Assembly: GCA_963818965.1 (NCBI GenBank)
Contig: CAWFUG010000001.1
Location: 64,001-128,000, forward strand
DNA: 64,000 nt
Origin: an uncultured Verrucomicrobiae bacterium
Lineage (GTDB): Bacteria; Chlamydiota; Chlamydiia; Chlamydiales; Rhabdochlamydiaceae
Direction: 5' to 3'
This document shows, piece after piece, positions 29,320-29,613 of the stretch; the first letter of the stretch is position 1; each line of letters starts with the position of its first letter. The position numbers were made by a program, and so were the translations under genes. The notes under the pieces are model-generated. The model had not been told where the DNA came from, did no database searches, and saw nothing but the letters and a program-made list of their open reading frames with translations.

Positions 29320-29348
29320 TTTACAAAAAAGGACACTTTGGTTATAAT
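29320..29348 (+). promoter_or_regulatory. Promoter of the met leader-metNIQ transcript
   Basis: TTTACA-17bp-TATAAT; predicted +1 coincides with ATG 29356. Confidence 0.75.
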
Positions 29349-29355
29349 TCAGTAC

Positions 29356-29439
29356 ATGAAAGACTTAATTTCCATTCTTCAGTCTCTTATGTCTCCTGGT
29401 CTCATGCGTGGCATGTCTATGCCCATGCGTGGCGCTTAG
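29356..29439 (+). CDS. Met-rich leader peptide MKDLISILQSLMSPGLMRGMSMPMRGA
   Basis: 6 Met in 27 codons, 4 in the last 11; directly upstream of a methionine transporter; no SD. Confidence 0.75.
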   Translation: MKDLISILQSLMSPGLMRGMSMPMRGA

Positions 29440-29505
29440 GGGAATTCTCGGTTTTTTACCCATCTCCTAAGCGCTAGTTTCTAGAGAACAATCAACCTAG
29501 GAGAT
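29432..29505 (+). promoter_or_regulatory. Alternative RNA stems of a putative translational attenuator
   Basis: 29432-29443 pairs with 29463-29474 (12 bp, one G-U); alternatively 29462-29469 pairs with 29498-29505 containing SD AGGAGA. Confidence 0.7.
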
Positions 29506-29511
29506 TTTCAG

Positions 29512-29613
29512 ATGTGTCAAAAAATTATTTTAATCCCCTGTGCAAATGGGCTTCTGCGTTTTCGCCCTGTTGCAAATCGACTAAAAAATGGGGGCGGCGA
29601 TGAAAAAAATTGA
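29512..29613 (+). CDS. 33-aa small ORF MCQKIILIPCANGLLRFRPVANRLKNGGGDEKN overlapping the metN start
   Basis: SD AGGAGA 7 nt upstream; stop lies just inside metN. Confidence 0.55.
   Translation: MCQKIILIPCANGLLRFRPVANRLKNGGGDEKN

Follow-up and report, generated by a model that had tools for sequence, protein, structure and literature searches.

A methionine-rich leader ORF in front of metNIQ

The window, by which we mean the whole stretch of 64,000 nucleotides (nt) analyzed here (positions 64,001 to 128,000 of contig CAWFUG010000001.1, from an uncultured Verrucomicrobiae bacterium that GTDB places in the chlamydial family Rhabdochlamydiaceae), carries a metNIQ operon and, in front of it, a short methionine-rich open reading frame (ORF) whose RNA can pair in alternative ways. 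An earlier note, made from the sequence alone, had read this arrangement as a methionine-sensing translational attenuator, in which the position of the ribosome on the leader ORF decides whether the Shine-Dalgarno (SD) sequence of the next ORF is accessible. We followed the element through related genomes and metagenomes and find that it belongs to a family of 30 loci in front of two kinds of methionine-acquisition genes. The features of the window copy, all on the plus strand, are as follows.

29320 to 29348, plus strand: sigma-70-type promoter, with TTTACA at 29320 to 29325, a 17-nt spacer and TATAAT at 29343 to 29348 (11 of 12 matches)
29356 to 29439, plus strand: leader ORF of 27 codons and UAG, without an SD (from the ORF list; its end is shared by 30 related loci)
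29391 to 29399, plus strand: anti-SD 1 (GUCUCCUGG), inside the leader ORF, which forms helix P1 with 29497 to 29505 in the minimum-energy fold
29403 to 29431, plus strand: hairpin A, in the methionine-rich stretch of codons 16 to 26 (from the window fold)
29432 to 29474, plus strand: hairpin B, with the 5' arm (anti-anti-SD) at 29432 to 29443 and the 3' arm (anti-SD 2) at 29463 to 29474 (from the window fold)
29498 to 29505, plus strand: SD TAGGAGAT, complementary to anti-SD 1 and anti-SD 2
29512 to 29613, plus strand: window-specific 33-codon ORF, served by the regulated SD (from the ORF list; no Pfam match)
29600 to 30358, plus strand: metN, ATP-binding cassette ATPase of 252 amino acids without C-terminal extension (Pfam ABC_tran, E = 8.6e-37)
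30342 to 31034, plus strand: metI, permease (Pfam BPD_transp_1, E = 4e-20)
31027 to 31812, plus strand: metQ, NlpA-family substrate-binding lipoprotein (Pfam Lipoprotein_9, E = 6e-91)

The promoter and the ATG without an SD at 29356 lie where the earlier note had placed them, separated by 7 nt that likewise hold no SD. Translation gives the product MKDLISILQSLMSPGLMRGMSMPMRGA, followed by the stop, and bears out the count of six Met codons (29356, 29389, 29404, 29413, 29419 and 29425), four of them in the last 11 codons. The leader ORF is probably leaderless; judged by the placement of the promoter, position +1 would be the ATG at 29356 or an adjacent position. The promoter match is not significant by itself, with 3 sites between 28700 and 30000 compared with 1.4 +/- 1.1 in shuffled sequences, but its geometry is kept in relatives. 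The methionine content is unusual: internal Met makes up 1.65% of the residues in the 39 long ORFs of the window, a frequency at which at least 5 Met in 26 codons would occur with a probability of 6e-5, and among the 382 ATG-started short ORFs of 15 to 40 codons in the window the leader alone has 5 internal Met.

The RNA from 29356 to 29620 folds with -78 kcal/mol (z = -3.2), and none of 200 shuffled sequences was as stable. The minimum-energy fold contains three helices, P1, hairpin A and hairpin B. Hairpin B consists of 12 bp between 29432 to 29443 and 29463 to 29474, with the stop codon (29437 to 29439) within its 5' arm, which resembles an SD; in its 3' arm, ATCTCCTA (29462 to 29469) is the exact complement of the SD at 29498 to 29505. 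Both pairings on which the original proposal was built, segment 1 with segment 2 and segment 2 with the SD, are thus present, as 12 bp and as an exact 8-nt complement, whereas anti-SD 1 (29391 to 29399) and hairpin A had been missed. The statement that no U-tailed terminator is evident also holds, in that no terminator-like site which could serve as the regulated output was found between 29356 and 29600. The only terminator-like hairpin of the region lies upstream, at 29020 to 29048 (11 pairs, 7 of them G-C, followed by TTCTTTTGGT), inside an unassigned 81-codon ORF (28979 to 29224) between murA on the minus strand and the leader promoter. No Rfam family matched between 29000 and 29900 of the window at an E-value of up to 10.

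The leader is kept in relatives, in front of two different genes

We read 30 loci in all, collected by BLAST, a covariance model, and pattern scans of genomes and metagenomes. A BLAST search with the leader against 41 relatives gave one true match, G003, and in 129 genomes of the family it gave 9 true matches, including the window's own genome, and 2 chance matches. The covariance model, built from 15 sequences, matched 16 of the 129 family genomes and, with G044, which was found by BLAST alone, brought the number of family genomes with the leader to 17; it gave no match in 144 genomes drawn from 46 further families of the order. Species genomes, scanned with a plain pattern, returned 17 loci, 8 of them already found, under record titles naming Rhabdochlamydiaceae, Parachlamydiaceae, Parachlamydiales or Chlamydiales and, for one contig, a bin of Acidobacteriota. 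The metagenome scan returned 13 loci, 12 true ones and 1 chance match. We discarded as leaders G010/L003 (E = 0.002; unrelated sequence and noise), L039 and L040 (chance matches), and L079 (a chance match in a GC-rich coding region). Conservation in relatives, on which the earlier note had made its proposal depend, is therefore borne out at 30 loci.

The loci fall into two groups. Group 1 comprises 9 loci, including the window, in which a leader ORF of 27, 26 or 19 codons stands before metN. The 21 loci of group 2 have leader ORFs of 14 to 17 codons, lack hairpin A, and precede a gene for homocysteine S-methyltransferase (PF02574, E = 2e-23), except for a few copies that stand before an insertion, a truncation, or a short ORF and a transporter-like gene. 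The methyltransferase gene occurs in 11 of the 129 family genomes, each of which also has the leader: 10 carry it immediately before the gene on one contig, and in the remaining one, G107, it lies at contig ends. Both locus types are found within the same genera (g10 and g43), and hence the cassette appears to have moved between operons.

The leader is much less regular upstream of metN, the region in which the earlier note suggested looking throughout the Chlamydiota. It is kept in the same-family loci described above, but among the other genomes of the family with metN placed, none of 14 had a comparable Met-rich short ORF upstream (of the 20 same-family regions retrieved, 6 lacked a Walker A motif within the part extracted); in other families the count was 1 of 22 genomes, alongside the absence of covariance model matches in the 144 genomes.

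What the relatives have in common is the end of the leader ORF. All 30 loci carry, upstream of the target gene and on the same strand, an ORF of 14 to 27 codons with its own translation start, and all 30 ORFs end in [S/P/L]-M-[P/S]-M-[R/Q/H/C]-x-[A/T]-UAG. The AUG codons of Met(-6) and Met(-4), counted back from the stop, code for the amino acid that the target genes supply and are invariant in 30/30 loci, while all other positions among the last seven vary (S/P/L at -7, P/S at -5, R/Q/H/C at -3, G/S/R/C at -2 and A/T at -1). The sensing codons do not form a consecutive run; they are spaced, as M-x-M in general and as M17, M20, M22 and M24 in the window. The N-terminal parts diverge freely and the frame stays open: the lengths observed, 27, 26, 19, 17, 16, 15 and 14 codons, change by whole codons and always keep the frame of the fixed UAG. 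Members of the metN group have 3 to 6 internal Met codons.

The start of the ORF is kept in two different ways. In group 1, exactly 7 nt separate the end of a -10-like hexamer from the leader ATG in 9/9 loci. In group 2, a strict filter finds such a hexamer ending 6 nt ahead of the ATG in 10 loci, and inspection by eye adds 3 more (TTGAAT, TTAAAT); in 7 loci, the promoter instead lies about 25 nt upstream, and the start is preceded, at a distance of 5 to 8 nt, by AAGG, GAGG or GGTG (one of these ORFs starts with GTG). Altogether the promoter geometry fits a transcript start at the leader start codon in 22/30 loci, 7 loci are SD led, and the start signal of 1 is ambiguous. An ORF whose start is preserved by two unrelated means is hard to explain unless it is read, and we infer, with good comparative support, that the leader is translated. 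Leaderless transcripts are not foreign to the phylum, as five leaderless mRNAs are among those reported for C. pneumoniae (PMC3333780).

Alternative pairings are conserved around the stop codon

Mutually exclusive pairings over the 3' end of the leader ORF are found across the aligned loci, with 90 to 99% of the alignment cells paired. Hairpin B pairs in 94% of the cells in an alignment of 15 sequences and in 98.9% in one of 17 group-2 sequences, and the helix of anti-SD 2 and the SD in 90% and 95% of the cells in two alignments. Group 2 has in addition a local hairpin X (CAUGC..GCGC-UUAG-GCGC..GCAUG), which includes the Met(-4) codon and uses the same GCGC as hairpin B; the combination of hairpin X and the anti-SD:SD helix has 95.6% of its cells paired in this group. 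In group 1, CUCCU is kept at the place of anti-SD 1 in all sequences read, and hairpin A pairs in 94% of the cells of 6 sequences, with the closing C-G replaced by U-A in 2 of the 6; hairpin A is absent in G104 and in group 2. The AUG of Met(-6) is unpaired in both modelled states of group 2.

A coordinated substitution occurs in G064: the shared segment has A in place of G, both partners of this base, in hairpins X and B, have U in place of C, and the A also turns the last residue of the leader from Ala into Thr. This triple change would support both alternative states with a single event. The G003 locus folds with z = -9.0, and none of five relatives' loci matched any Rfam family at an E-value of up to 1.

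Proposed mechanism and its behavior in a folding model

We hypothesize that transcription starts at or beside the leader AUG or, in some relatives, that the ORF is preceded by a 25-nt leader with its own SD. The UAG lies within a segment that mimics the SD (GCGCUUAGG...) and would normally be paired to the anti-SD (..CCUAAGCGC) as hairpin B. When Met-tRNA is ample, the ribosome would reach the UAG and melt hairpin B, and the freed anti-SD could then pair with the SD of the next cistron and switch its translation off. After release, this off state may be locked by the local hairpin X in the methyltransferase group, and, in the metN group to which the window belongs, by anti-SD 1 within the leader ORF together with hairpin A. 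If Met-tRNA runs short, the ribosome would stall when Met(-6) occupies the A site or, in loci of the metN group, at the additional Met codons 17 and 20; there it would cover the upstream competitors and halt just short of hairpin B. Hairpin B would then retain the anti-SD, leaving the SD free and the methionine-acquisition gene translated.

This scheme was examined in an equilibrium folding model in which all RNA up to the leading edge of the ribosome is blocked, the edge being set at the first nucleotide of the P site plus 11 or 14. The scan took in 24 loci (17 of group 2 and 7 of group 1); L032, L038, L044 and L082 were left out for their insertions, L086 because it is truncated, and L080 because it nearly duplicates L075. 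The median probability that the SD is unpaired was, in group 2, 0.31 to 0.33 with the A site at -6 or -5 and 0.01 to 0.02 with the A site at -1 or the stop; the corresponding medians in group 1 were about 0.28 at Met(-6)/-5 and 0.17 at -1/stop. A drop of at least 2-fold was seen in 13/17 group-2 and 4/7 group-1 loci. In silico, 17 of the 24 loci thus have an SD that opens while the A site is at -7 to -5 and closes once the stop is reached, and in these same 17, but not in the window, a stalled ribosome blocks the structures that sequester the ribosome-binding site, as has been described for mycobacteria. When the A site holds Met(-6), the start of hairpin B is 16 nt past the first P-site nucleotide, a distance that we take to be just outside the ribosome footprint. 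In the model, it is enough for the ribosome to slow down anywhere from codon -8 to codon -5 for the SD to open.

We put a probability of about 0.62 on the element being a ribosome-mediated translational attenuator specific for methionine. The core of the earlier proposal is carried by the conserved end of the ORF, its whole-codon changes in length, the two kinds of start, the two methionine-related targets, and the switch in 17/24 loci; what does not follow is the behavior of the copy in the window. Specificity for methionine is suggested by two unrelated methionine-acquisition targets, metNIQ and homocysteine S-methyltransferase, combined with invariant Met codons. Transcription start, stall and methionine response are what we infer from these features.

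A number of points weigh against this interpretation. The switch fails to appear in the model in 4/17 group-2 and 3/7 group-1 loci, and the window copy itself does not switch (0.17 versus 0.13), because its SD also pairs with window-specific downstream sequence. In the window, moreover, the SD now serves the inserted 33-codon ORF and not metN. Folding with a blocking ribosome, as the earlier note had suggested, gives a mixed answer: most loci show the SD freed when the ribosome stalls at Met(-6) and closed when it reaches the stop, but the one from which the idea came does not. The polarity, which had been said to fit a methionine importer, does so only for a stall at Met(-6) or at codons further upstream; a stall at Met(-4) closes the SD with the +14-nt leading edge, and its outcome depends on the reach assumed for the ribosome. 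Group 2 has just two sensing codons. A shortage of methionine would limit initiation too. The pattern scans required both ATGs, so that only the 17 family genomes detected with BLAST or with the covariance model give an unbiased view of the invariance of the Met codons. Of the 129 family genomes, 60 have a MetQ homologue, and only 6 of these 60 carry the leader. Covariation is thin: it consists of the triple change in G064, the changed closing pair in hairpin A, and a single pair differing from one group to the other. The majority of stem columns show no variation at all, and shared ancestry could therefore explain much of the conservation. Finally, some relatives have a U-rich stretch after hairpin B (7/8 U in L043 and L081), which could hint at termination, with the opposite polarity. 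We considered hairpin B as an intrinsic terminator and rejected this as the main reading: its loop measures 17 to 31 nt, the tail is interrupted and set apart from the stem, a stall would give the wrong polarity, and the conserved anti-SD:SD complementarity would be left without an explanation.

Alternative explanations

One alternative concerns the window copy only and holds that it is a decaying relic, in which an insertion of about 94 nt has uncoupled metN, now translated from its own weak G-rich site. The assignment of the operon to metNIQ is confirmed by Pfam, but the next ORF behind the regulated SD is the 33-codon ORF, and metN starts only at 29600. This ORF (29512 to 29613) has no Pfam match, overlaps the start of metN by 14 nt, and stops 11 nt past the metN AUG. 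In an alignment with a relative, its SD and first codons fall on the relative's SD and metN start, and the metN start now in use matches that same sequence a second time; the SD and first codons of the 33-codon ORF look like a duplicated former metN start. The 94-nt insert, 29506 to 29599, occurs once in its own genome. That metN has a GGGGG 5 nt before its ATG, that the modelled SD stays paired at every ribosome position, and that the congeneric G001 has no leader would all be expected of a relic. In G001, metN lies 7 nt behind an amino-acid permease gene (L090, G001:C72) and encodes a protein of 341 amino acids with the C-terminal extension, compared with 252 amino acids without it in the window. 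Yet the promoter, the leader ORF, both anti-SDs and the SD are intact in the window, and the stop of the inserted ORF so close behind the metN AUG would allow translational coupling, by way of which any control of metN that has been kept would have to operate. We regard decay as unlikely, although it has the window-specific sequence on its side.

A second alternative accepts that the leader is translated but denies it any specificity: translation of the leader would open or close the SD in response to the rate of translation or the availability of ribosomes, or would merely tune expression constitutively. The modelled switch indeed depends on where the ribosome stands and not on the identity of the codon, and the two internal Met codons that group 2 has are few for a sensor. 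However, no other sense codons are invariant, methionine is what both target operons supply, and the metN group adds Met codons and not other rare codons, all of which makes a device blind to methionine improbable.

The conserved end of the ORF might instead be read as that of a ligand-sensing arrest peptide. TnaC and SpeFL are peptides of this kind, which sense a ligand and block release. Here, the C-terminal S-M-P-M-R-x-A would act with free methionine or S-adenosylmethionine (SAM) in the exit tunnel to prevent release at the UAG; a ribosome held there would leave hairpin B unable to close, the anti-SD would close the SD, and the element would sense a metabolite and not the charging of tRNA. 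The ending M-[P/S]-M-x-x-[A/T]-UAG would then be a nascent-chain sensor for methionine or SAM, a bacterial counterpart of TnaC on a portable cassette that moved between two methionine-acquisition operons, an appealing picture to which we give very little weight. It would account for the position of the conserved part of the peptide directly before the stop codon and for the use of UAG as the stop in every case; the model shows the closed state when a ribosome occupies the stop, and the polarity is right for methionine-acquisition genes. But all five non-Met positions among the last seven vary, with chemically different residues, and the RNA pairing constrains most of these codons enough to explain what is conserved. 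P/S at -5 and a small residue at -1 are retained, at positions that are under RNA constraint as well. In G064, the replacement of Ala with Thr is accompanied by compensatory changes in the RNA. An arrest peptide is highly improbable in our view.

SD-masking SAM riboswitches are common in front of met genes, but a switch made of RNA alone (a riboswitch, or the target of a protein or small RNA, with the ORF incidental to palindromic CAUG-rich stems) is scarcely credible even with a core strongly conserved at the nucleotide level, synonymous positions included, and well-structured folds (z = -9.0 in G003 and -3.2 in the window), given the empty Rfam searches of the window and the five relatives' loci (E up to 10 and up to 1), an ORF that varies by whole codons only, two independent kinds of translation start signal, an AUG(-6) that is invariant yet unpaired in group 2, and, with hairpin A absent from G104 and group 2, no conserved multihelix junction common to both groups.

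Relation to known systems

Methionine regulons are, in the textbook view, controlled by MetJ, SAM riboswitches or T-boxes. With SD-masking SAM riboswitches (SAM-II/V, SAM-III and SAM-VI) and Met T-boxes, a methionine attenuator of the kind proposed here would share the context of methionine transport and synthesis genes and, with some of the SAM riboswitches, the sequestration of the SD. It differs from them in matching no Rfam family and in having a translated ORF as an integral part of the chlamydial element.

The closest mechanistic parallel comes from mycobacteria, in which Canestrari et al. describe leaderless polycysteine short ORFs whose stalled ribosomes block structures that sequester the ribosome-binding site (bioRxiv 10.1101/834739). 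As far as that account goes, the two systems would have in common a leaderless short ORF as the first cistron, control at the level of translation, and a device used at several loci of one pathway. They differ in the amino acid and its arrangement, with spaced Met codons here (M-x-M, together with M17 and M20) and a run of Cys codons there, and in the phylum; some of the chlamydial copies are SD led, and the chlamydial element is known from sequence alone.

The closest parallel in gene context is metL of Streptomyces lividans TK24, a predicted leaderless leader of 29 codons with Met in front of metNIQ (PMC8079986). As described there, it would likewise be a leaderless ORF directly before metN with Met near its C terminus (..ARCMCRRMCAF, then the stop), and it is also followed by hairpins without a typical Rho-independent terminator. 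Unlike the chlamydial leader, metL is an actinobacterial prediction at the level of annotation, and its peptide is rich in Cys and Thr as well; the section on 5' untranslated regions gives no pairing scheme or conservation for it, and the comparison is one of descriptions only. The earlier note knew of no Met-codon equivalent in Chlamydiota, and for Chlamydiota this may stand, but a Met leader before metNIQ had already been predicted in this streptomycete. Control by leader peptides with Met codons is otherwise almost absent from the literature, the annotation of Streptomyces metL being the sole instance that we found. The principle is classic; its methionine version is barely documented.

In classical transcription attenuators, such as trpL, hisL, leuL, thrL, pheL and the ilv leaders, translation of a leader peptide governs transcription. 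The chlamydial element would share their four-segment logic, with a stall 4 to 6 codons before the stop selecting between mutually exclusive pairings, but the output helix here would be an anti-SD:SD duplex and not an intrinsic terminator, the amino acid is methionine, and the start is probably leaderless. In translational attenuation of the ermC/cat type, a drug- and peptide-dependent stall in the leader ORF exposes a downstream SD. A ribosome stalled in the leader ORF would likewise rearrange the hairpins and expose the SD in the chlamydial case, although the stall would presumably come from a shortage of charged tRNA-Met. Classical leader attenuators are cited in PMC8079986 and PMC2965389, the latter of which also mentions ermC.

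Uncultivated chlamydiae with an obligately intracellular life thus carry the same short cassette before two kinds of methionine-acquisition genes, with a pairing logic that can be read from the sequences. If the proposed mechanism is true, it would extend ribosome-mediated sensing of amino acids to methionine and to Chlamydiota, and it would mean that such sensors can move between operons as a module of about 150 nt. It would also provide a compact, testable model, with two sensing codons and three helices, for how near to a stalled ribosome an RNA helix can form. In addition, the analysis flags unannotated genes of 14 to 27 codons in these genomes.

Further observations

A different Met-rich short ORF, MFNQTSKHFVLFASMRFMMPRWA and a stop, lies before metN in another chlamydial family (f20), at about 1353 to 1490 of G147:C83 (L113). 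A TAGCAT hexamer ends 6 nt before its ATG, the ORF ends in a hairpin (AUGCCC/GGGCAU) that is followed by U7 and looks like a terminator, and pairing with the region around the metN start is possible for a segment, UUUCAUGA. Family f20 has just one other genome, which gave no match.

A link between the leader and the loss of the C-terminal extension of MetN was considered and rejected: MetN has about 250 to 257 amino acids in the leader-bearing loci L031, L033, L034 and L080 and about 300 to 340 in L002, L032 and L035. The contig binned as Acidobacteriota (L053; 240 kilobases, from the title of a metagenome-assembled genome) carries a leader and a metN whose sequence is the same as in the chlamydial G066 (L033), and its label is probably a binning or labelling problem.

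Several copies are irregular. In L074 and in L041/L059 (G107), a short ORF follows the leader SD in place of the methyltransferase, and a U-to-A change in the anti-SD goes along with a loss of the modelled switch; in L074 the short ORF is followed by a transporter-like gene, which in L037 lies downstream of the methyltransferase. One metagenome contig carries two group-2 leaders, L085 and L086, about 1.7 kilobases apart, the second of which breaks off right past the stop codon, without hairpin B, and looks like a partial duplication. Long palindromic insertions resembling miniature inverted-repeat transposable elements lie between hairpin B/C and the SD in L032 (G092) and inside hairpin B in L038 (G044), and others interrupt or flank the leader region in L082 and L127 (G100; upstream of metN). 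Such repeats are apparently active in the genomes concerned and capable of disrupting the switch.

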